Origin: an uncultured Bacilli bacterium
GTDB lineage: Bacteria > Bacillota_I > Bacilli_A > RFN20 > CAG-826
Direction: 5' to 3'
NCBI GenBank assembly: GCA_944368945.1
Contig: CALVXH010000001.1
Coordinates: 1 to 53,913 of the forward strand
DNA: 53,913 bases
The position numbers and the translations under genes were made by a program. The notes below the pieces were generated by a model, which saw only the letters and a program-made list of their open reading frames with translations, ran no database searches and was not told where the DNA came from. Of this stretch, positions 33,454 through 51,261 are shown piece by piece; the stretch's first letter is position 1; each line of letters opens with the position of its first letter.

Positions 33454-33483
33454 AGTATAGTTGAACGATTGTTCAATTGTCAA
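33454..33483 (-). promoter_or_regulatory. Promoter of the metal operon with an embedded ArsR-type operator palindrome
   Basis: On the minus strand: TTGACA (33483-33478), 18-nt spacer, TATACT (33459-33454). The spacer contains the perfect 6-4-6 inverted repeat TTGAAC-N4-GTTCAA (33461-33476). Confidence 0.65.
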
Positions 33484-33530
33484 ATAATTTTTTATTTTTA
33501 TTTTACGCCATAAAGTTTTAAACTATTCTC

Positions 33531-34838
33531 ATGAAGAAAATTGAACGAGATAACTACATTTTTAAAAAGAAATGTTTATTAATATTATTATATTTATACT
33601 ATATAAATGATGTTGACTATCATGGAATAATATTTAGAAGTTTTGGGTTTCATTTTGACCCAACATGTAACTTTAAAGTTATTGTAAATTCTAAAAATAA
33701 TCATATTCATAAATATGTTGTACATATATTTGTAAGTAATAGGGGAGTTAATTTAGAAGAACTCGATGTAATGGGAAATATAAATATTTTAAAAGTTAAG
33801 AATGTTAAAACTATTGACCCTTATATTCCATCATCTTCGTTAAATATATATTTTGATGAATCAAATTTTCTTGTTTATGGTTATATGGAAGGAAAACTTA
33901 TTAACTATAAATTGATTCAAAATAGTGGAACATATTTTAAAGATGAAATTCTCTATTATTTAAGCAATGATGTAAAATATGATAATGTAAATAAATCAGC
34001 AAATAATTTTACATTGTATTTATTAAGGTTTTTTACTGAAAAGATACAAACTGATTTAATTATGGGTGCAGGAATTAATTGTGATTATGGCGCTAAGGAT
34101 TGGGGACATTTAATCGAAGCTTTAAATAATGAATTTTATAAAAATGATGATAAAGCGATTGAACAAATAAAGCACTTTGTTGGAGATGAACTCTTCGTTA
34201 ATGGAAAGGTACTTAAAACAAGTGGATTTGATACATATAAATCTTTAAACCAAGAACTATATTTATTTAAAGAAGCAAAGAGCTTTAATGATTCAAATTC
34301 TACTTTATATAATTGCGTTAATTATTTAATAAAACACCCTAAAAGTGAGGTAATTACATATAATTACGACACAAATCTTGAATATTTACTTAAAAAGAGA
34401 AATATAAAATATACTAGTGTTTATGATGAAAATAGTTTTGTGCATAATGATAGCATAGTAACAATTTTCCATGTTCATGGCTTATTACCTTTCGATAAAT
34501 ATAAAGAGCAAAAATATCTTGATTCCTTAGTTTTCAATGAATCAGAATATTTTAATTTATACAATAATCCTTACTCATGGAACATATCTAAGCAAATGCA
34601 TGACTTTACTTTTAGAACGTGCTTATTTATAGGTGTTTCTTTAACCGACCCTAATATGAAAAGGCTATTGGAAGTTTCGATAAATCCATTAAAATTTAAC
34701 TTTATCTTTATGAAAAAAGAAAATGGATATAATGAAAATACATATCGTACAGTCACTAATTATTTCTTTAGTTATGACCTCATTACTATATGGATTGATA
34801 ACTACGATGAGATTGGAAAGTGGCTCGAATTAATATAA
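33531..34838 (+). CDS. Standalone SIR2-like (SIR2_2 family) protein with an unknown about 170-aa N-terminal domain
   Basis: IMGAGINCDYGAKDWGHL, VITYNYDTNLEYLL, IFHVHG, LVFNESEY and LFIGVSLTDPNMKRLL occur in the order expected for PF13289-type SIR2 domains. No clear SD, so the start is uncertain. Confidence 0.7.
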   Translation: MKKIERDNYIFKKKCLLILLYLYYINDVDYHGIIFRSFGFHFDPTCNFKVIVNSKNNHIHKYVVHIFVSNRGVNLEELDVMGNINILKVKNVKTIDPYIPSSSLNIYFDESNFLVYGYMEGKLINYKLIQNSGTYFKDEILYYLSNDVKYDNVNKSANNFTLYLLRFFTEKIQTDLIMGAGINCDYGAKDWGHLIEALNNEFYKNDDKAIEQIKHFVGDELFVNGKVLKTSGFDTYKSLNQELYLFKEAKSFNDSNSTLYNCVNYLIKHPKSEVITYNYDTNLEYLLKKRNIKYTSVYDENSFVHNDSIVTIFHVHGLLPFDKYKEQKYLDSLVFNESEYFNLYNNPYSWNISKQMHDFTFRTCLFIGVSLTDPNMKRLLEVSINPLKFNFIFMKKENGYNENTYRTVTNYFFSYDLITIWIDNYDEIGKWLELI

Positions 34839-34950
34839 TAATTGAAAATTTTTTCTTTTTTTGAAAATATTTTCATAAATATCTTTTTAAAAAGTAAATT
34901 TGAAGTGTTTTCTTTTTACTTATAACGTCTTTTTTGCTAAAATTTTTAGC

Positions 34951-36396
34951 ATGAGAACAAATGGAATTTTAATGCCTTTAAGTAGTTTACCTAGTAAATA
35001 TGGAATAGGCGATTTTGGAAAAAGTTGTTTTGAATTTATAGACTTATTAACAAATGCTGGAGTGAAATTTTGGCAACTATTGCCTTTAAATCCTTTAGGA
35101 GGCGGGAATTCTCCATACCAATCTATATGTTCATATGCAATTGATCCTATTTATATAGATTTAAGTGAATTTTATGATGAAGGCCTTGTAGATGAACTCG
35201 AATCATTTAACGAGAAAAAGAAACGTGTCGATTATCCTAAAGTTAGAGCTTTTAAGATGAAGGTTTTACATGAGGCATTTAAAAATCAAAGAGACACTAA
35301 TAAAGTTGCTTTTAAAAATTTCTTAAAAGAAAATCCGTGGATTGATGCTTATGCACGTTATCTTATTTTAAGAGAAAAGAATAATTATCAAGAATGGTGG
35401 TTCTGGCCAAAAGAAGAAAGATATGATTTTTATAAGAATACTTTTGACTATTCAAAATATAAGGAAGAAATCTTATTTACAGAGTGGTGTCAATATATCG
35501 CTTATAAGCAATATCTGAAATTAAAAAAATATGCTAATGAGTGTGGAATTAAATTAATGGGTGATATTCCTTTTTATGTTGGAAGTGATAGCAGCGACGC
35601 ATGGTCTAATCAAGATGAATTCTTATTAGATGAAAACGATAGACCAAGAAAAGTTGCTGGAGTACCACCTGATTACTTTAATGAGAATGGTCAAAGATGG
35701 GGCAATTTAATTTATGATTGGGAATATATGAAAGATGATAATTTTACTTTCTGGATTTCAAGAGTTGAACATGCCTCAAAATTATTTGATTATTTAAGAA
35801 TCGATCATTTTAGAGCTTTTGACACATATTGGGCTATTAATCCTGAGTGTCCAACAGCGATTGATGGAAAATGGGAAAAAGCTTATGGTGAAGAATTCTT
35901 TAACGAACTTAAGTCTAAGAATTTAAGTATAAAGTTATTTGCTGAAGATTTAGGAGAATCTGCCCCTGGAGTAGAAAAGTTAAGAGATGAGTTTGAATTA
36001 CCAGGAATGAATGTAGTTCAATTTACCATCCTAAATCCTGAATTTAAAGAAAAGGAAAATCAAATAATTTATACTGACACTCACGATAATGACACTTTAA
36101 AAGGTTGGATTTTATCATTAAATGCAGGTGATAAAGAGTTACTTAAAATCGCTTTAAGAGAAAAAAATATCTCTGGAAGAAGCTTATACGACAAATTATT
36201 AAATTATACTCTTTCTAGTGAATGTGATTATGCTTGTATACCTATTTGGGATTATTTAAAATTGGATTCTTCTGCGAGGATGAATACTCCTGGTACATGT
36301 GGTTCGCCAAATTGGGAGTTTAGATTAGTTACTTTTGCAGATTTTATAAAAATTATTAATGATATTAAAGGACGTTTAATAAAGTTTAAGAGATGA
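34951..36396 (+). CDS. malQ: 4-alpha-glucanotransferase (amylomaltase)
   Basis: MRTNGILMPLSSLPSKYGIGDFG, RIDHFRAF and TDTHDNDT motifs. ATG 34951 is preferred over the TTG at 34900. TGA stop. Confidence 0.92.
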   Translation: MRTNGILMPLSSLPSKYGIGDFGKSCFEFIDLLTNAGVKFWQLLPLNPLGGGNSPYQSICSYAIDPIYIDLSEFYDEGLVDELESFNEKKKRVDYPKVRAFKMKVLHEAFKNQRDTNKVAFKNFLKENPWIDAYARYLILREKNNYQEWWFWPKEERYDFYKNTFDYSKYKEEILFTEWCQYIAYKQYLKLKKYANECGIKLMGDIPFYVGSDSSDAWSNQDEFLLDENDRPRKVAGVPPDYFNENGQRWGNLIYDWEYMKDDNFTFWISRVEHASKLFDYLRIDHFRAFDTYWAINPECPTAIDGKWEKAYGEEFFNELKSKNLSIKLFAEDLGESAPGVEKLRDEFELPGMNVVQFTILNPEFKEKENQIIYTDTHDNDTLKGWILSLNAGDKELLKIALREKNISGRSLYDKLLNYTLSSECDYACIPIWDYLKLDSSARMNTPGTCGSPNWEFRLVTFADFIKIINDIKGRLIKFKR

Positions 36397-37845: not shown

Positions 37846-39042
37846 ATGTACGAAAAAAGATATCTTGATATTAGAAAATTTAAACTTTATCCAAGAAATA
37901 ACGAAGTAAAGCTGATTAATAAAGAGTTTAAATTTTATCAACGCTATTTTTTAGCGTTGGAAAAATATGTATCTTCTAATATTGATGGAAGGAAAATAAC
38001 TAAGAAAACTATTGTTGATTTATGTAATGAATTTAGTAACAAAGTTAAAAAACTTAATTTCGACTATACAAAATATTTTGCCAATGATCATTTTTTATTC
38101 GCAAAAGAAAACTTGCTAAAAAAATTATTTTTTAGAAAGAAAGAGAATATAAAAAAGTACATACCTATAAAAAGAACGATTAAATTATCTGGATATGGCT
38201 GCTTCATTATGAATGATTATTTCTACTTAAAAAATGTTCCTAAAATAAAAATTAGGCCAAAGTTAGAAATGTATGGTGATTTTACTTTTATAACAATAAC
38301 AAAAATTCATAAAGATTTTTTTCTAACAATTGTTAAATCTGTTAAAGCAATAGATTTTCCTAAGACAGGTGTTGCCTGTGGTATTGATATAGGTTTTAAA
38401 GAATACGCAACCATATATGATTCTAACGATGACGTTACAAAAATAGACTTTAAAAATGATAAATTAGATACTTTGGTATCGAAAGCTAATTTTTATAAAA
38501 AAGTTTTGGTGAATATAGAAAATAAAAATATTAATTATAAAAAATCAAAAAATTATATAAAAATTTTATCCAAATTAGAAAAGGTGTATCGTAAAATTTC
38601 AAATATTCAGGCTAATTTTTATAGTAGAATAACAAACTTAATTGTTAAAAAATATGATTTAATAACAATAGAAAGTATTAATTTGGAATCACTATATAAA
38701 GTTCGGACATCAAAAATAAATTTACAAAGAAGATCGTTTGGAAAGTTTTTTAAAGTATTAGAAGATAAATGCAAAAAATATAATAAAAAGTTAATTAAGG
38801 CTGATCAATTATTTATGTCTAGTCAAATTTGTTCTTCTTGTGGAGTCGTTCATCATGAGATGAAGGATTATACATTAAGAAGATTTAAATGCGAATGTGG
38901 TTATGAAGCAGATAGGGATGAAAATGCTGCTAAGAATCTTATGTATTATGGAATAAGATTTGTTAGATATAAAAATGTTAGCTTAGAAAATGGTAAAAAT
39001 GAGGGTGAAATGTATGAACTACAAAATAAAATTAAAAAGTAA
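37846..39042 (+). CDS. tnpB: TnpB / IS605-OrfB-family RuvC nuclease (OMEGA-type RNA-guided nuclease homologue), catalytic residues intact
   Basis: RKFKLYP N-terminal motif; GIDIG (D181); ITIESINL (E276); CSSC...CEC zinc ribbon; DRDENAAKNL (D356/D358). No tnpA gene nearby. Confidence 0.85.
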   Translation: MYEKRYLDIRKFKLYPRNNEVKLINKEFKFYQRYFLALEKYVSSNIDGRKITKKTIVDLCNEFSNKVKKLNFDYTKYFANDHFLFAKENLLKKLFFRKKENIKKYIPIKRTIKLSGYGCFIMNDYFYLKNVPKIKIRPKLEMYGDFTFITITKIHKDFFLTIVKSVKAIDFPKTGVACGIDIGFKEYATIYDSNDDVTKIDFKNDKLDTLVSKANFYKKVLVNIENKNINYKKSKNYIKILSKLEKVYRKISNIQANFYSRITNLIVKKYDLITIESINLESLYKVRTSKINLQRRSFGKFFKVLEDKCKKYNKKLIKADQLFMSSQICSSCGVVHHEMKDYTLRRFKCECGYEADRDENAAKNLMYYGIRFVRYKNVSLENGKNEGEMYELQNKIKK

Positions 39043-39568
39043 TGAAAAATCCAATAAAAAAATATTAAAAGTAACTAGTGATGAAAAGAAAAATCTAGTG
39101 AAGAAATACAAAAATATTGTATTTTTAGAAAATGTTATAGGAACACCTTATTTATGTTATAAGATTATTAAATCAAATATTATTAAAGAAGATACAATCA
39201 TATGTTTTGGTAAAATAAAATTTAATAATAGTAATGATGGTAAATACTCTAAAAAGTATAATAATATATTTGTTCTTATAACATTAGAAAAACTTAAAAA
39301 AATTTATAATAAGTTTTTAGAAATATATGGTGATGAATATATTAAAGATTATTTAAACATTATCAAAATATTAAATTATACCTATGCAATACAATATGAT
39401 GAAATAAGAAATGAAGTTACTTTTTTGTCCAGTATTTTATTAAGAAAATATAAGTCTTCATTTATAATTAGTGAAAACAATGATGTAATATTTTTAGATG
39501 ATATTTCTAAGATTATGTATATCCACGAGACAAGTAATTTTAATTTAGAAAGATTTGCCATAGCATAA
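39014..39568 (+). CDS. Unknown 184-aa Lys/Asn/Ile-rich protein, translationally coupled to tnpB
   Basis: Stop-free 184-codon frame in very AT-rich DNA. A GAGGGTG SD (39001-39007) lies 6 nt before ATG 39014. Overlaps the 3' end of tnpB by 29 nt. Confidence 0.6.
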   Translation: MNYKIKLKSNEKSNKKILKVTSDEKKNLVKKYKNIVFLENVIGTPYLCYKIIKSNIIKEDTIICFGKIKFNNSNDGKYSKKYNNIFVLITLEKLKKIYNKFLEIYGDEYIKDYLNIIKILNYTYAIQYDEIRNEVTFLSSILLRKYKSSFIISENNDVIFLDDISKIMYIHETSNFNLERFAIA

Positions 39569-39570
39569 TA

Positions 39571-40236
39571 ATGAATAATTTTTATATTGATGAAAGTGGG
39601 AGTATGACAAAAAAGTATGCAGAAGCTTTTCCTTTTTTCGTTATTTGTTTAATCAAAGTTTTTGAACCAGGTAAACTAAAACATCTATATAAAAAATTAT
39701 TTTTAAAGAAAGGAAGTTTATTTTTCACAGGGAGTGATAAAAGAATTGAACTTAAAGGATCGAAGTTAAAATATGATGATAAAAAGTATCTAGCGAAATA
39801 TTTTAATAGACCAGGTTTATTTGAAGTTTATTATATAAAAGTAGTGAACAAAAATTTGGATCAATCAGAAATTTATAATAATAAAGCACGCGCTTTTAAT
39901 TATTTAATTGCCAAAGACTTGGAACATTTATTTAATAAAAAGCTCATAAACTATGGAAAATACTATCTGTATATAGATAACAGAAATGTTAAGAATGAGT
40001 CAAAAAACTCATTAGAAGATTACTTAAATATTAAATTTGCAGTTGAAAGAACTTTTTTAGAAAGCGTTGAGGCAAAATATTTTGACTCAAAAAATGTTAA
40101 GTTTATACAACTAGCCGATTTCTTTTCTAATTTATTTTACTCGGATTTAATGACTCAAAATTTTGAAAATGAGATGATTGAATTCGTTAAAAATAAAATT
40201 ATACGCGATATTTTTATTTTTCCTATAAAATATTGA
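39571..40236 (+). CDS. DUF3800-like protein
   Basis: N-terminal FYIDESGSM and C-terminal FIQLADFFSN motifs match my recollection of the DUF3800 signature. It starts 2 nt after the upstream stop. Confidence 0.65.
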   Translation: MNNFYIDESGSMTKKYAEAFPFFVICLIKVFEPGKLKHLYKKLFLKKGSLFFTGSDKRIELKGSKLKYDDKKYLAKYFNRPGLFEVYYIKVVNKNLDQSEIYNNKARAFNYLIAKDLEHLFNKKLINYGKYYLYIDNRNVKNESKNSLEDYLNIKFAVERTFLESVEAKYFDSKNVKFIQLADFFSNLFYSDLMTQNFENEMIEFVKNKIIRDIFIFPIKY

Positions 40237-40529: not shown

Positions 40530-40603
40530 TGGTGCCTCTTCGCAGAATCGAACTACGAATAGATCCTTACCATGGATCCGTTATGCCATTTAACTAAAGA
40601 GGC
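40530..40603 (-). tRNA. tRNA-Thr: tRNA-Thr (anticodon GGU), CCA encoded
   Basis: Hand-folded cloverleaf. Acceptor GCCTCTT/AAGAGGC, D stem GTTA/TAAC, anticodon stem GATCC/GGATC with loop AT-GGT-AA, T arm CGTAG-TTCGATT-CTGCG, 3' ACCA. Confidence 0.9.
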
Positions 40604-45549: not shown

Positions 45550-48500
45550 ATGGAAGGCGAAAATAAACTTGTTTTAGAGATTGATGCTATTAATAAAGTA
45601 AACTATTGTCTTGTTCATAATGGTATTAAAATTATAAGCTCTATTAAACTTATTAATGAAAGTGACAAGATATATAGAAATTTAATTGTCAAAGTTCGCT
45701 TTGAACCAACTTTTGCCGATGGCTATACTTTTGAAATTTCATTTATTGACAAGAATCAATCCATTATTGAAAGAAATATTAATCTACCTATTAACTTTGA
45801 CTATTTATATTCTTTAAATGAATCTTTTAAAGCTAATTTAATTTGTGAAGTCTTTGATGGTGAAAATATTATCGCAAGTGTAATTAAACCATTAGAAGTA
45901 TTAACTTTTGACCAATGGGATGGCTCACAAGTTGCTACACAATATCTAGCTAGCTTTGTTTTGCCAAATGATAATGTAGCTAAGAAAATTTTAAAAAACG
46001 CAGAAGAAATTTTAACTTCTGAATCTACATTAAAATGCTTTTCTGGGTATATTGATGGAGATAAAAATTTAGTTATTAAAGAAGTTGGAGCTATTTATTA
46101 TGCTTTATTAAAAGAAAATATATCCTACGCTTTACCTAAACCAAGTTTTGAACTTAATGGTCAAAAAATACGTTTACCATTAGAAATAATTAATAGTAAA
46201 TTTGCAACATGTCTTGATTCAACTTTACTTTATTCAGCAATACTTGAACTTGCTGGGCTTAATTCTTTAATTATTTTAATTGATGGACATGCTTATTTAG
46301 GTGTGTGGCTAGATGATGAAAACTATCCTAGTGTTTTAATTGAGGACAAAGCTTACATTGAAAATAAAGTTAAAAATAATGAAATTATTTTAATAGAAAC
46401 AACTTTAATTACTAGTAAAGCTAGTCCAAGTTTTGAAGAAGCAATTAATGCAGGCAAGCATAATTTAAATACAAAAACAAAGACCTTCTACGCTATTGAT
46501 TTAAGAAGTGCTAGGGCAAGTCAAATTAAACCTTTACCTATATCTAGTGATGAAACTGGAAAATATATATTGGTTGATGAAAAGGACTTAGATATTAAAC
46601 CTGATTTAAATTATTCTGTTGAAAATGTGCGTATAATCGACAATAAAATTAATAAAGATAGATTTGATGTTTGGGAGAAAAAACTTTTAGATTTAACAAA
46701 TAGAAATAAATTAGTTAGTTTCGTGCCAGGCAACCAGCATTTTCAATTCTTTGCTTATGATATTTATAGATTCTTTGGTGCTTTGCTTCATGAAAACTTA
46801 CTTGTTTTAAGCGAAAAAATGGAAGTGTATAAGGAAGTTGTTGATAAAATCTTTGATGTCAATTTTTCTCAAAATAAAACAATTTTTGATAATGATATTG
46901 AAAACGAAAGAGTTAGACTACTAGTCACAGAGAAAAAGCTTCCGACAATATTGCGCAATTTACAAAGCAATGCTAAAAGTTCAATTGAAGAAAGTGGTAG
47001 CAATACATTATTTGTAACTTTCGGAACACTTTCTTACAAAGAAAAAGGAAAAGTAAGATATGCGCCTTTAATCTTAGTCCCAGTTGATATTACAAAAAAT
47101 AGTACTGGAAGAAATTATTCACTTTCAGCTCGTGATGATGAAATACTAGTTAATAATACATTATTTGAATATTTAAAAGTCAATTTCGATTTGCATTTTG
47201 ATGAGTTACGTAAAATCCCTTACGATGAGGAAAATGATTCTTACGACTTAAAATCTTATTTTGATACATTAAGAAGCAAAATTACTGGTTTAGAAGGTTG
47301 GACAGTTAGTGAAACAGCATTTATCGGCATATTTTCGTTTACTAGATTTATTATGTGGAATGATTTAAGAAATAGAAAAGAAGATCTTTTAAAGAATGAT
47401 ATTGTTAAATCTTTAGTAGATAATTCAATTCCATTTAAAAATAAGAATCAACCTGTAAATATTAATGATTTAGATTTAATTCTTGCCCCAAATAAATATG
47501 CAATTCCTTTGATGGCTGATTCTAGTCAAACTGAAGCAATCGTTGATGCAAGTAGAGGATTATCGTTTGTTTTAAATGGCCCACCAGGAACTGGCAAGTC
47601 TCAAACTATTACAAACATGATTATTAATTCATTATATAATAAAAAGACAGTACTTTTTGTTGCTCAAAAAATGGCAGCTCTTGAAGTTGTTAAAAAAAGA
47701 CTAGATGAAACTGGTTTAGGATTATTTTGCCTTGAATTACATTCAAATAAAGCGCAAAAAGCAGATGTTTTGTCACAAATTAAAAGAATTTTAGATACAG
47801 GAAAATTGAAAAAACCTGAAGAATACGATGTAATATGTGCTCGTTTATTAGAAAAAAGAAATGAATTAAATAACGATATCAAAAAGTTACATAAAAATAG
47901 CACTAATGGATTTGATTTATATGAAAACATTACTTGCTATGAAGAATATAAAGATTATTACAAAAATATTAAACTTCAAGGCATTGATTATAGTTTAATA
48001 AATAAGGATATTTACTTAGCGACTTTAAAAGAAATAGAAACGTTTATTAACTTTAAAAAAGAACTTGGAGATAAATATATTAAATTATTTAGTCCAATCA
48101 AATTAGAAGAATACTCTATTTCTTTAAGAACAGATTTTAAAGAAACTTTAGATCAATATTCAGTTTCTTTATTTAATTATTCAAGTTATCTACAAAATGT
48201 TTTGCAATCAACTAATATCACCTTGGCTCTAAATTATTCTAATTTATATAATTTATATTTGGCTGTAACTTTTTATAACTCAAAGAAAAATAATATTTAT
48301 AAAGAACTTGTTTTATCAAACGACGAAAAAGAGAAGAGTATATTAAAAGGTCTTGTTAGTAAATTAGGTGAGTTCAAATCTACTAATGATTTAATTAATA
48401 GTTCATTTAATAGAAGTGTTTTAACATTACCTTTTGATAACTTGCTTTTTAGATATGATCGTTCTTTAAATTTATCATTTTTTAGTAAGCGAAAAGAACA

Positions 48501-51261
48501 AAAAGCAATATTAAACGAATTAAAAAGATATGCTTTATTGCCAAAATCACTTAATAAAGGAGGACTATATAAATTATTAGATGATTTAAATAAGTTCTCT
48601 AACTTTTATAAAGAGTTAAAAGATAATGAAAATAGTCTTAAGCATTATTTTAAAGATGATTATAAAGAATTTGATACAGACTATTCACTTGTATTAAGTA
48701 ATATAGAAACAAGTTTAGAATTTAAAAAAGTATTCGACTCTTTTGATGCAAGTGACAAATTTAAACTTTTAGATGAAATTTCTAATAATAGTTTTGATCG
48801 TTATAGAATTATTGCTGAGAACAGCAATTCAATTGAAGATAAATTAAATACAAAATTCAAATTATCTATTAAATCATTAGGATTTACAAATTTCTTTGCA
48901 GAAACTAATAAATTTATCGAAAGTTTAAAAGAGAATCTTGAAAAACTTAAAGAATATGTTTTGTTTAATGAAGAAAAAAATAAATTAAATAAATTGCCAG
49001 TTGGAAATTTAGTTAAACTTATTCTTGAAGGTTTTGTTAAAGATGATGACGCAATTAATTTTTATAAAAAAGATATAAACTATAACTTAGCAATGCTTCG
49101 TATAAATAATGATAAAGATTTAAATTTATTTAGTGGTGCTAAAGAAAATGACACGATAGAATCTTATAGAAAATTAATTAATGAATATAATGAAATTACT
49201 ATTAAAGAAGTTGCAGCTAGATTGTCAAAATCTACTTCGCAATTCTTTAATAGTGAAAATTCAAGTTTAAGTAGTGAATTTGTAATCTTAAATAAAGCCA
49301 TATCAAATAATGGTAGAGGAATTTCATTAAGAAATTTATTTGATTCAATACCAAATATTTTACATTTAATTTGTCCTTGCTTTTTAATGTCTCCTTTATC
49401 GGTTGCTCAATATTTAGACCCTAAAAATGAACCATTTGATATAGTTATTTTTGATGAAGCAAGTCAAATTACAACTAGTGATGCAATTGGCGCTATTGCT
49501 AGAGGCAAAAGTGCAGTAATTGTTGGCGATGAAAAACAACTTCCTCCAACAAGTTTCTTCCAAGCAAATACTAGTGATGAAGATGATTTCTTTATTGAAG
49601 ACGGAGAAAGTGTTTTATCTGATTGTCTGAATATATCTATGCCTAAAAAATATCTTTCTTGGCATTATAGAAGTAAAGATGAAAGTTTAATTGCTTTCAG
49701 TAATGCTTCTTATTATGACAATAGATTATTAACATTCCCTTCACCTGAAAATATTGAAGGTGCAATTACTTATAATTATATTAGTGATGGTGTTTATGAA
49801 AATAGACGTAATAAACGTGAAGCAGAAGAAATTATTAAAGAAGTGACAAGACGTTTAAAAGATCCTATATTATCAAAAAAATCTATTGGTATTGTTACTT
49901 TCTCAATTGCTCAACAATCATTGATTGAAGAAAAGTTCCAAGAAGCATTACGTAAAGATCGTGATTTAGAAAATGCAGTTTCTTCACAAAAAGAGGAACT
50001 ATTTATCAAAAACCTTGAGAATGTTCAAGGAGATGAAAGGGATGTTATTATCTTCTCTATTTGCTATGGTCCAGGCAAAGATGGAAAAGTAAGTTTAAAC
50101 TTTGGACCTTTATCAACTAACGGTGGTGAAAAGCGATTAAATGTTGCTGTTTCTAGAGCTAGGGAAGAAATGATAATTTATACTTCTTTGCGTAGTGATA
50201 TGATTGATTTATCTAGAGCTCAAAATAGTGGATCTAGAGGATTAAAGGAATTTTTAGAATATGCTAGAAGAGGCAAGAGTTACATTTTAATTAAAAATGG
50301 TGAACAAAAAGAATATAGAGAAGGAATTGAAAAATATATTGCTAGAGACCTTGAGGCTAGAGGATATAAATGTAATATTAATGTCGGAACTAGCGATTTT
50401 AGAGTTGATATTGGTGTTATAAGTAAAGAAGATCCTAATAAGTATTCATTAGGCATTTTGTGTGATTCAAAATCTTACATTGAAAGTAAAACTGCTAAAG
50501 ATCGTAATGTTACTCAAAAAGCAGTTTTAAATCGACTTGGCTGGAAAATTATTAGAATTTGGTCACTTGACTATTTCGATTCACCAAATTATGTAATTGA
50601 TAAGATTGTTGAGGCAATAAATAATCCTCATTTTGATGAATCCCAAAATGATGCTAGGATTCCTCACATTTCTTTTGAAAAATCTGATGAAGTAGTATCT
50701 ATGAATCACGCTATTGATTATGTATCAACTGGATATATTAAAAAGAGCGATGATAGTGATAATTTCTTTATGTTTTTAGATGAGGTTAAAAACGTCTGCA
50801 ATTTCTTTATTAAAAATGAGGCACCTATAAGTTATAGATTATTAGTTAAAAAGGTATTAGATCATTATAATATTTCAAAAAATTCCGCAAAAACTAGAGA
50901 AGTATTTTATAAGGTACTTAATGGATATAAAGTCACATATACTGGTGATGTTCCATTTTATTGGAGCGATGAGTTACAATATTTAAGCTTAAGTAAATAT
51001 CGTGTTGGTGGTGAAAGAGAGTTTATTGATATTCCTAAAGAAGAATTATTAATTGCTATTAGCGATATCATGAAAAAGAAATTATCTCTTAATGAAGTAG
51101 AACTCACTAAGGAATTAACAAACTGCTTTGGATTTACAAAAGTTGGTGATACCATTAAAAATGTTGTCGATATTGCAATTCAATATGCTTTAGAGAAAAA
51201 AGTAATTAGAGAAGAAAATGGAGCGTATTATTATATAGCGCCAACAAGAGTAGAAAGGTAA
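45550..51261 (+). CDS. 1903-aa multidomain protein: transglutaminase-like N-terminal region, DUF4011-like region, Upf1-like SF1 helicase, Vsr/DUF559-like PD-(D/E)xK nuclease, DUF3320-like C-terminus (Hhe-like defence helicase-nuclease)
   Basis: ATCLDS...GHAYLGVW (C221/H247); WEKKLLDLTNRNKLVSF; GPPGTGKS (G677, nt 47578); IFDEASQ (D1302, nt 49453); VGDEKQLPP; WHYRS; VQGDERDVIIFS; NVAVSRAR; FRVDIGV...LGILCDSKSY...RIWSLDYF; NEAPISYRLLVKKV. Confidence 0.8.
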   Translation: MEGENKLVLEIDAINKVNYCLVHNGIKIISSIKLINESDKIYRNLIVKVRFEPTFADGYTFEISFIDKNQSIIERNINLPINFDYLYSLNESFKANLICEVFDGENIIASVIKPLEVLTFDQWDGSQVATQYLASFVLPNDNVAKKILKNAEEILTSESTLKCFSGYIDGDKNLVIKEVGAIYYALLKENISYALPKPSFELNGQKIRLPLEIINSKFATCLDSTLLYSAILELAGLNSLIILIDGHAYLGVWLDDENYPSVLIEDKAYIENKVKNNEIILIETTLITSKASPSFEEAINAGKHNLNTKTKTFYAIDLRSARASQIKPLPISSDETGKYILVDEKDLDIKPDLNYSVENVRIIDNKINKDRFDVWEKKLLDLTNRNKLVSFVPGNQHFQFFAYDIYRFFGALLHENLLVLSEKMEVYKEVVDKIFDVNFSQNKTIFDNDIENERVRLLVTEKKLPTILRNLQSNAKSSIEESGSNTLFVTFGTLSYKEKGKVRYAPLILVPVDITKNSTGRNYSLSARDDEILVNNTLFEYLKVNFDLHFDELRKIPYDEENDSYDLKSYFDTLRSKITGLEGWTVSETAFIGIFSFTRFIMWNDLRNRKEDLLKNDIVKSLVDNSIPFKNKNQPVNINDLDLILAPNKYAIPLMADSSQTEAIVDASRGLSFVLNGPPGTGKSQTITNMIINSLYNKKTVLFVAQKMAALEVVKKRLDETGLGLFCLELHSNKAQKADVLSQIKRILDTGKLKKPEEYDVICARLLEKRNELNNDIKKLHKNSTNGFDLYENITCYEEYKDYYKNIKLQGIDYSLINKDIYLATLKEIETFINFKKELGDKYIKLFSPIKLEEYSISLRTDFKETLDQYSVSLFNYSSYLQNVLQSTNITLALNYSNLYNLYLAVTFYNSKKNNIYKELVLSNDEKEKSILKGLVSKLGEFKSTNDLINSSFNRSVLTLPFDNLLFRYDRSLNLSFFSKRKEQKAILNELKRYALLPKSLNKGGLYKLLDDLNKFSNFYKELKDNENSLKHYFKDDYKEFDTDYSLVLSNIETSLEFKKVFDSFDASDKFKLLDEISNNSFDRYRIIAENSNSIEDKLNTKFKLSIKSLGFTNFFAETNKFIESLKENLEKLKEYVLFNEEKNKLNKLPVGNLVKLILEGFVKDDDAINFYKKDINYNLAMLRINNDKDLNLFSGAKENDTIESYRKLINEYNEITIKEVAARLSKSTSQFFNSENSSLSSEFVILNKAISNNGRGISLRNLFDSIPNILHLICPCFLMSPLSVAQYLDPKNEPFDIVIFDEASQITTSDAIGAIARGKSAVIVGDEKQLPPTSFFQANTSDEDDFFIEDGESVLSDCLNISMPKKYLSWHYRSKDESLIAFSNASYYDNRLLTFPSPENIEGAITYNYISDGVYENRRNKREAEEIIKEVTRRLKDPILSKKSIGIVTFSIAQQSLIEEKFQEALRKDRDLENAVSSQKEELFIKNLENVQGDERDVIIFSICYGPGKDGKVSLNFGPLSTNGGEKRLNVAVSRAREEMIIYTSLRSDMIDLSRAQNSGSRGLKEFLEYARRGKSYILIKNGEQKEYREGIEKYIARDLEARGYKCNINVGTSDFRVDIGVISKEDPNKYSLGILCDSKSYIESKTAKDRNVTQKAVLNRLGWKIIRIWSLDYFDSPNYVIDKIVEAINNPHFDESQNDARIPHISFEKSDEVVSMNHAIDYVSTGYIKKSDDSDNFFMFLDEVKNVCNFFIKNEAPISYRLLVKKVLDHYNISKNSAKTREVFYKVLNGYKVTYTGDVPFYWSDELQYLSLSKYRVGGEREFIDIPKEELLIAISDIMKKKLSLNEVELTKELTNCFGFTKVGDTIKNVVDIAIQYALEKKVIREENGAYYYIAPTRVER

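Follow-up and report, generated by a model that had tools for sequence, protein, structure and literature searches.

A SIR2_2 protein with an orphan N-terminal domain evolves like a core gene across a clade of uncultured gut Bacilli

We analysed a SIR2-like protein of 435 amino acids (aa) encoded in a 53,913-nucleotide (nt) stretch of DNA from an uncultured Bacilli bacterium of the RFN20/CAG-826 lineage (contig CALVXH010000001.1, assembly GCA_944368945.1; the whole stretch is hereafter the window). The gene, at 33531..34838 on the plus strand, is a complete coding sequence (CDS) of 435 codons plus stop that starts with ATG. An N-terminal domain related to nothing that we could find (residues 1-172, 33531..34046, plus strand) is followed by a SIR2_2 (SIRim-type) catalytic domain recognised by Pfam, PADLOC and Foldseek (residues 173-435, 34047..34835, plus strand). 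What is new here is a SIR2_2 enzyme that carries a novel orphan domain and has an unusual, core-gene-like evolutionary mode. An initial annotation of the window, made from the sequence alone, had proposed an inserted single-gene abortive-infection module. That proposal finds no support in our results: the gene is clade-wide, diverges together with core genes of its loci, follows their GC content, evolves slowly and lies in housekeeping contexts. We favour instead, with about even confidence, the reading that it encodes a domesticated, clade-fixed, immune-type SIR2_2 NAD+-cleaving enzyme (NADase), which is chromosomal, vertically inherited and strongly constrained, and whose activity is predicted.

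The family is large and sharply delimited. A search of protein collections returned 226 clusters of homologues; among the best 120 of the 226, identities range from 57 to 98%, query coverage is 99-100% in 119 clusters, and the length is 431-441 aa with only three exceptions. A genome scan, in which each GTDB species was represented by one genome, showed that at least 90 uncultured gut Bacilli, counted as species-level genomes, have a full-length copy (a count of carriers, not a fraction of all RFN20 genomes); 80 of these loci were kept. Across these 80 the proteins are 49-90% identical to the window protein, the closest being those of the Onthovivens-like loci L001 (90%) and L002 (81%). Identity within the family is thus 49-98% overall, as against at most 29% outside it; the best outside matches (27-29%) lie mainly over the SIR2 domain and none of them reaches the first 100 residues. 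Named carriers are Candidatus Onthovivens, Enterosoma, Enteromonas and Clostridium sp. CAG:288. Onthovivens, listed by NCBI only as Bacilli incertae sedis, is presumably a member of RFN20 in the GTDB scheme. Enterosoma corresponds to RFN20/CAG-288 and Enteromonas to RFN20/CAG-826 (PMC8035907), and CAG-288 and CAG-826, the two families concerned, are both predicted to be without peptidoglycan (PMC10868615). Several 'cleanbin' records (L028, L032, L046, L059 and others) are titled Bacteroides uniformis, Prevotella sp., Roseburia hominis or Parasutterella; these names look like mis-assigned bins, because the flanks show the same Bacilli/RFN20-type synteny.

Comparison of the loci shows vertical descent and long residence of the gene across a large clade, under stronger constraint than that acting on its metabolic housekeeping neighbours. 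Pairwise distances between the SIR2-like proteins track those of RpsG, RpsL, EF-G and EF-Tu from the same loci (Pearson correlation 0.72-0.82), and the GC content of the gene (19-53%) follows that of the locus, which spans 23-55% across the family, with r=0.98. Mean divergence of the SIR2-like protein was 0.31 where that of EF-G was 0.18, and 0.38 as compared with 0.46 for the ATPase and 0.58 for the solute-binding protein of an ATP-binding cassette (ABC) transporter. Within the genus of the window it was 0.22, as compared with 0.37 for MalQ, 0.33 for RimO and 0.46 for CadA. The ratio of non-synonymous to synonymous substitution rates (dN/dS) was 0.03-0.09 for the whole gene, at or below the values for malQ, rimO and cadA in most comparisons, and 0.01-0.15 for the N-terminal domain taken alone, both domains being constrained; since dS is saturated in most pairs, these values are approximate. 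The least saturated pair (dS 0.75-0.78) gave 0.01 for the N-terminal domain and 0.03 for the SIR2 domain. Disrupted copies or pseudogenes were found in none of the 80 species-level loci (0/80), four loci missed by the gene caller proving to be three intact open reading frames (ORFs) and one truncation at a contig end.

The same data settle where the protein begins. Homologues align with the window protein without gaps over residues 1-172, from the first methionine onwards, and this, together with the low dN/dS of the N-terminal domain (0.01-0.15), indicates that the ATG start is right and that the N-terminal region is protein-coding. The initial annotation had allowed for a real start codon far downstream that would remove the N-terminal domain; we rejected this on the same two grounds, and the 435-aa start holds with the domain in place.

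In the window the gene is flanked by minus-strand arsR-HMA-cadA and plus-strand malQ-rimO. This agrees with its earlier placement between a metal-resistance operon and malQ, and with the earlier statement that no TIR, HerA, pAgo or SLOG gene is adjacent. That it had been inserted there, however, was not borne out. The GC profile around the gene has no compositional break, no tRNA gene is adjacent (the nearest lies ~5.7 kilobases (kb) downstream), and meaningful flanking repeats were not found, the only matches being AT-rich chance ones with one copy inside the CDS; an insertion or mobile element was rejected because none of these features gives a sign of it. To avoid selecting on the SIR2-like gene itself, we also fetched loci via homologues of MalQ. 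All five relatives with a MalQ at least 60% identical (5/5) hold the gene, at 78-90% identity, between arsR and malQ; no empty site was found among them, which leaves 'inserted' unsupported. The arsR/malQ slot arrangement is common to the closest species-level loci, L001-L007. No family member was found in IMG/VR, GenBank phages or PLSDB plasmids.

The catalytic domain is akin to the defence-type sirtuins and not to CobB-type deacetylases, a conclusion supported by profile searches, active-site residues and predicted structure. The Pfam check proposed in the initial annotation recovered SIR2_2 (PF13289) at residues 273-393; its score of 57.8 bits clears the gathering threshold of 24.5 (E=1.7e-15). 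No other Pfam family was matched at E up to 1, and this includes canonical SIR2 (PF02146). Searches of the window protein against NCBIfam and PHROGs gave no match. In PADLOC it matched the ThsA SIR2 model weakly (E=3.8e-8, residues 176-433), over positions 24-272 of the 478 in the model, that is, its N-terminal half only; it belonged to no PADLOC system and matched no Dsr/Dsr1 model.

All five of the ordered SIR2_2 motifs claimed earlier were recovered in their places. The NAD-binding glycine-rich loop GAGIN (G179-N183, codons 179-183, 34065..34079, plus strand) and the motif HVHG (codons 314-317, 34470..34481, plus strand), which contains the putative catalytic histidine H316 (34476-34478, plus strand), were read from the sequence. 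Between them lies ITYNYDT (codons 275-281, 34353..34373, plus strand), which aligns with TTNYDT of EcThsA (8wc0) and includes the putative catalytic asparagine N278 (34362-34364, plus strand). The motif FIGVSLTDPNMKRLL (F366-L380, 34626..34670, plus strand) aligns with LFIGFSFTDPNL of ThsA, and LVFNESEY and LFIGVSLTDPNMKRLL are also found. Across 189 distinct family sequences no substitution occurs at G179, G181, N183, N278, D280, H314, H316 or G317, while conservation of A180 reaches 99%. The most conserved stretch comprises residues 321-400, including a helical insert and the F366-L380 motif, with a mean top-residue frequency of 0.84.

A full-length AlphaFold model reached a moderate mean predicted local distance difference test score (pLDDT) of 67.8. 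Searched against the PDB with Foldseek, it retrieved KomC, ThsA, DSR2, SIR2-HerA and FAM118B (probability 1.00; E values of 2e-9 to 1e-6), as a SIR2-like Rossmann fold from which the zinc module is absent, the model being weak in the helical insert. A family profile run against PDB sequences gave no match at E up to 0.01, so that structure comparison alone links the family to solved SIR2 proteins. PF13289, the Foldseek matches and the invariant NAD-site residues uphold the SIR2_2 kinship and the two-domain layout that had been proposed from the sequence.

Among SIR2 proteins of known systems, the window protein is a SIR2_2 member that fails the defining features of Thoeris, DSR, SIR2-HerA, SPARSA, Kongming and the canonical sirtuins. 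The best structural match is KomC (HAM-SIR2) of Kongming (9xvc_E and 8zsf_A; E ~2-4e-9; template modelling (TM) score 0.52-0.56, target-normalised). KomC is a SIR2_2 NADase of ~264 aa that forms helical filaments, consists of the SIR2 domain only and works with KomA, KomB and a dITP signal, whereas the window protein has an extra N-terminal domain of 172 aa; no KomA (deaminase) or KomB (HAM1-like) gene adjoins it, either in the window or among the conserved contexts. With ThsA of type I Thoeris it has in common the SIR2_2 fold and the motifs GAGxS/N, T(T/Y)NYD with its Asn, xHG with its His and FIGxSxTDPN, and Foldseek gave E ~3e-9 to both BcThsA and EcThsA, beside the weak PADLOC match (E=3.8e-8). 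Identity to ThsA in the structural alignment, however, is only ~15-18%; the accessory domain of the window protein is N-terminal and unrelated to SLOG, and the family is vertical and clade-fixed where ThsA is patchy. The window protein has no SLOG/STALD or Macro domain, and no ThsB/TIR gene was found near it, whether in the window or among the 80 loci with their conserved contexts.

DSR1 and DSR2 resemble the window protein in being single polypeptides that join a SIR2 NADase to a non-catalytic domain (Foldseek E 4e-8 to 1e-6). They are, however, ~1000-1275 aa long, with the SIR2 domain N-terminal and a large C-terminal sensor, whereas the window protein has 435 aa and the reverse order. No HerA-type ATPase gene, as in SIR2-HerA, occurs in the window or the related loci. 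As to SPARSA, there is no pAgo neighbour and no APAZ, and only a trace of similarity (E=0.064 over 55 residues) to 8qlo_B. With canonical sirtuins such as CobB and Sir2 the window protein has in common a distant Rossmann-type NAD-binding fold and the catalytic His, and differs from them in lacking a PF02146 match and the zinc-binding module. For deacetylation canonical sirtuins require a zinc module, which SIR2_2 proteins do not have (PMC12700824). What would generally mark an accessory defence gene was likewise not seen: contexts are housekeeping, the mobile-element collections hold no copies, the protein co-diverges with core proteins, its GC tracks the locus, the slot is occupied in 5/5 relatives and pseudogenes are lacking.

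The closest evolutionary analogue is to be found in vertebrates. FAM118A/FAM118B form a SIR2_2 lineage confined to one clade, and Foldseek matched the window model to 9r0p_B at E=4e-7. The FAM118 proteins are at least 41% identical within their clade and less than 32% identical to proteins outside it, and have conserved surface patches, filaments and NAD processing (PMC12700824); the corresponding values for the window family are at least 49% and at most 29%. Both have conserved surfaces outside the NAD site. The two differ in kingdom and have no accessory domain in common, and filaments, which FAM118 forms, are a prediction for the window family.

Outside the family, the nearest relatives are uncharacterised proteins of 405-449 aa on viral contigs, in which another N-terminal domain precedes the SIR2 domain (IMG/VR L082, 7701-9047, plus strand; L083, 7701-8915, plus strand). 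They are 27% identical to the window protein over residues 101-435 (E=7e-31). The same length and domain order and a nearly identical motif set, including the C-terminal (I/V)IWI(N/D)xFxEI, relate them to the window protein; they differ in that their first ~100 residues have no similarity to its N-terminal domain and in sitting on viral contigs. One lies between lysis and baseplate genes, within a P2-like prophage's tail region, and matches the PADLOC LmuA model at 3e-22; a gene with a faint AbiH-like match precedes the other. The viral relatives match the PADLOC ThsA/LmuA SIR2 models far better than the window protein does (E 1e-19 to 1e-22), and the L082 and L083 proteins are, unlike the window gene, candidate single-gene SIR2 defence proteins in their own right. 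Because these viral SIR2 proteins are the nearest outside relatives, the catalytic domain of the window family probably came from the mobile defence gene pool.

Such an origin raises the question of whether the protein is simply a fixed antiviral NADase, in which the N-terminal domain would sense infection and the SIR2 domain would deplete NAD+ and abort it, the gene being a lineage-wide, vertically inherited component of innate immunity. The SIR2 domain is structurally nearest to KomC, ThsA, DSR2 and SIR2-HerA, with a weak PADLOC match to ThsA; outside relatives with a similar layout come from viral contigs, in one case from a P2-like prophage, in its tail region; and the catalytic residues do not vary. 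All of this is consistent with an antiviral role. Sensors that bind phage proteins, however, usually diversify and turn over, whereas here the presumed sensor and effector are both under very strong purifying selection and evolve more slowly than their housekeeping neighbours. Moreover, there is no defence island, neighbouring defence gene or PADLOC system, and the gene is absent from the mobile elements searched, keeps a stable position and descends vertically across a GC range of 19-53%. The initial annotation had named, as an outcome that would speak against its proposal, a conserved housekeeping family with no phage phenotype; as regards conservation this is closely approached, and as regards phage it leaves room for a fixed antiviral role, which we consider possible though rather improbable.

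The N-terminal domain was rightly described as unrecognised. Modelled alone with 22 homologues (AlphaFold2, AF2), it gave a confident fold (pLDDT 88.4; predicted TM score, pTM, 0.86) made up of a long helix (residues 3-25), a seven-stranded beta sheet and two helices. Pfam, NCBIfam, PHROGs and PADLOC all gave no match to it, and a sequence profile found nothing significant in the PDB (best E 0.78). The AlphaFold and Foldseek check that had been suggested thus yielded no significant relative (best E=0.012 in the PDB and 0.016 in BFVD; TM-score at most 0.33 among the matches listed). A profile search of 1.84 billion (1.84e9) representative proteins returned 12 matches, namely one family representative, nine short family fragments and two weak partial matches to ~2,000-aa proteins. 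As this search found only the family, the domain appears to be private to it.

Three ideas about the function of the N-terminal domain were considered and dropped. A PD-(D/E)XK nuclease (D109...E120-x-K122, with weak matches to YaeQ, SPARDA and splicing endonuclease) was discarded since K122 is not conserved, and a His/Cys metal site (C46, H58, H60, H65) since two of its residues, C46 and H65, are replaced in P0050 and P0091. The N-terminal helix has too short a hydrophobic run (~14 residues) for a membrane anchor, and AF2 confidently packs it into the folded domain.

In other genera the surroundings of the gene differ from those in the window. The usual order there is rpsL-rpsG-fusA-tuf, the SIR2-like gene, genes for two RDD-family membrane proteins and a sugar-type ABC transporter, a further membrane protein of 500 aa without family sometimes being encoded between the RDD genes and the transporter. 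An RDD gene lies directly 3' of the SIR2-like gene on the same strand in 44 species-level loci, overlapping it or separated by at most 20 nt in 39 of the 44. L030 has a terminator-like hairpin after tuf and a TATAAT box ahead of the SIR2-like gene; the stop codon of this gene runs into the next start in an ATGA overlap, and the RDD genes share 8 nt with each other. The SIR2-like gene thus usually leads an operon that also encodes membrane proteins, and stands alone only in the genus of the window. The earlier description of the gene as standalone therefore holds for that genus and fails elsewhere. The RDD-RDD-ABC module occupies 9299-13099 in L030 and has equivalents in about 45 loci and in L097-L100; its RDD proteins carry large inserts, and a long insert in its ABC ATPase splits the ABC_tran match in two.

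This arrangement would suit a cytoplasmic subunit of a three-protein membrane module, with the two RDD proteins relaying a membrane or transport signal to the SIR2-like protein and the genes having been split apart in the window's genus. The close spacing and the stop/start overlaps in the RDD-containing loci count in its favour, as does the proposal that RDD domains hold an intramembrane binding site facing the cytoplasm (PMC12419801). The two parts, however, also occur one without the other. RDD-anchored loci L097-L100 have the RDD-RDD-ABC module and no SIR2-like gene within 5 kb; about a dozen Onthovivens-like loci (L001-L007, L091-L094, L096) have the SIR2-like gene without an RDD gene within 5-8 kb; and no RDD homologue was found anywhere in the 54-kb window. 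RDD proteins, moreover, diverge about twice as fast (0.72-0.78 versus 0.38 for the SIR2-like protein), so that the two do not appear to be tightly co-evolving, and they have no PADLOC match. We downgraded the RDD proteins as obligate partners because RDD-anchored loci lack the SIR2-like gene and the window lacks RDD, and regard a membrane module as very unlikely.

The frequent position of the gene just downstream of the tuf/fusA operon, and its core-gene-like behaviour, could also be expected of a housekeeping protein-modifying sirtuin, which would carry out NAD+-dependent deacylation or ADP-ribosylation of a conserved cell target recognised by the N-terminal domain. The extreme conservation of surface-forming segments (residues 321-400, 0.84) fits the recognition of a conserved macromolecule. 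The adjacency to tuf is broken in L030, however, by the terminator-like hairpin and a separate promoter-like site. Neither the lack of a PF02146 match at E up to 1 nor that of the zinc module in SIR2_2 proteins favours such an activity, and no SIR2_2 member is known to be a deacylase. This explanation thus seems unlikely to us, although less so than the membrane module.

How a domesticated, clade-fixed NADase might work can be sketched by analogy. The C-terminal domain would bind NAD+ and cleave the nicotinamide-ribose bond to give ADP-ribose and nicotinamide, or else transfer ADP-ribose, a chemistry carried over from ThsA, DSR1/2, SIR2-HerA, SPARSA and FAM118B and seen in every SIR2_2 protein studied biochemically. 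NADase activity is toxic when unregulated, so the N-terminal domain would most likely be a gate that keeps the enzyme off until a ligand or partner binds. Activation would probably proceed via formation of an oligomer or filament, as in ThsA, DSR2, KomC and FAM118B. Because both domains and the insert are near-frozen, a conserved cell component or metabolite is more likely to be the trigger or partner than is a phage protein, which would evolve fast; this step is an argument, not a measurement. In the window's genus (Onthovivens-like) the gene would have moved away from the RDD operon to its present place, alone between arsR-cadA and malQ-rimO. More tentatively, and with some doubt about the history as a whole, we suggest that an immune-type sirtuin was captured from the mobile pool by a wall-less RFN20 ancestor, fused to a domain of new fold, and is now an indispensable, constitutively retained NAD+ switch. 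Such a switch might govern dormancy, NAD turnover or a stress response linked to the membrane or to transport.

Several points weigh against the domestication reading. The prokaryotic SIR2_2 proteins characterised so far are all antiviral effectors, and with the closest outside relatives lying in phage or prophage DNA an immune role is the default by homology. There is no single position at which the gene is always found, and some lineages may lack it, as four RDD-anchored loci (L097-L100) have the RDD-RDD-ABC module with no SIR2-like gene within 5 kb, and in L095, where MalQ is 56% identical, synteny differs and the SIR2-like gene is not adjacent to malQ. The saturation of dS and the nature of the carrier count, given above, belong here too. 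Finally, the full-length model is only moderate, with pLDDT below 50 at residues 183-250 and 316-360, and interdomain gating is a prediction.

Upstream, the gene shares a divergent intergenic region of 54 nt with arsR (33477..33530), which contains weak promoter-like sites for the SIR2-like gene and a strong one for arsR. The SIR2-side site is TTGTCA-16-TATTTT (9/12; plus strand, ending at 33504); that on the arsR side is TTGACA-18-TATACT (11/12; minus strand) and overlaps the weak SIR2-gene candidate (33454-33504). The number of promoter-like sites in this region is not above that in shuffled controls. Binding of a metal-responsive ArsR could in principle affect both genes, a purely positional argument. 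A riboswitch or leader was rejected, since Rfam at E up to 1 found nothing in the window upstream region, and no more than sub-threshold noise in L030.

Downstream, the malQ ORF as called (TTG at 34900; 34900-36396, plus strand) probably starts too early. ATG at 34951 would give 481 aa, and a MalQ of this length fits the homologues in length and full coverage and matches the GH77 profile from position 1. Directly 3' of rimO is a TnpB-like gene (37846-39042, plus strand) with Cas12f1-like_TNB and OrfB_IS605 matches and RuvC-like GIDIG/IESI/ADRDENAA motifs. TnpB occupies the same slot in L001, L002, L091 and L092 (51-57% identity) and in L003, L005, L006, L094 and L096 (24-32%), an unusually stable synteny for a gene derived from an insertion sequence. 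Its match to Cas12f models was, as expected, the only PADLOC hit among the window neighbours. A 192-aa ORF without family match and then a DUF3800 protein are encoded at 38990-40236 (plus strand), where GC is the lowest of the region (0.19-0.23), followed by tRNA-Thr (40530-40603, minus strand). The DUF3800 gene is common to L001 and L091, and neither it nor the 192-aa ORF matched PADLOC. Farther on, a 1903-aa ORF (45550-51261, plus strand) lies downstream of a gene with an MGS-like domain.

Prokaryotic SIR2_2 proteins are now read almost automatically as accessory anti-phage effectors, and the family in the window behaves in the opposite way, being fixed, inherited vertically and better conserved than its metabolic housekeeping neighbours throughout a clade of gut bacteria that are abundant though uncultured. 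A lone SIR2_2 gene should therefore not automatically be taken for a new defence subtype. The N-terminal domain, with ~170 residues, a confident predicted fold and no relative found, is a worthwhile target for structural work and ligand discovery. Should the protein nevertheless prove antiviral, it would represent an abortive-infection protein that, unusually, has stayed unchanged over a very long time. If instead it is a NADase whose activity is regulated by a cellular trigger, it would clearly exemplify, in bacteria, the domestication of an immune enzyme into core physiology, and, should the history suggested above be true, would be a bacterial counterpart of vertebrate FAM118 or SARM1, an immune NADase turned core physiological regulator.

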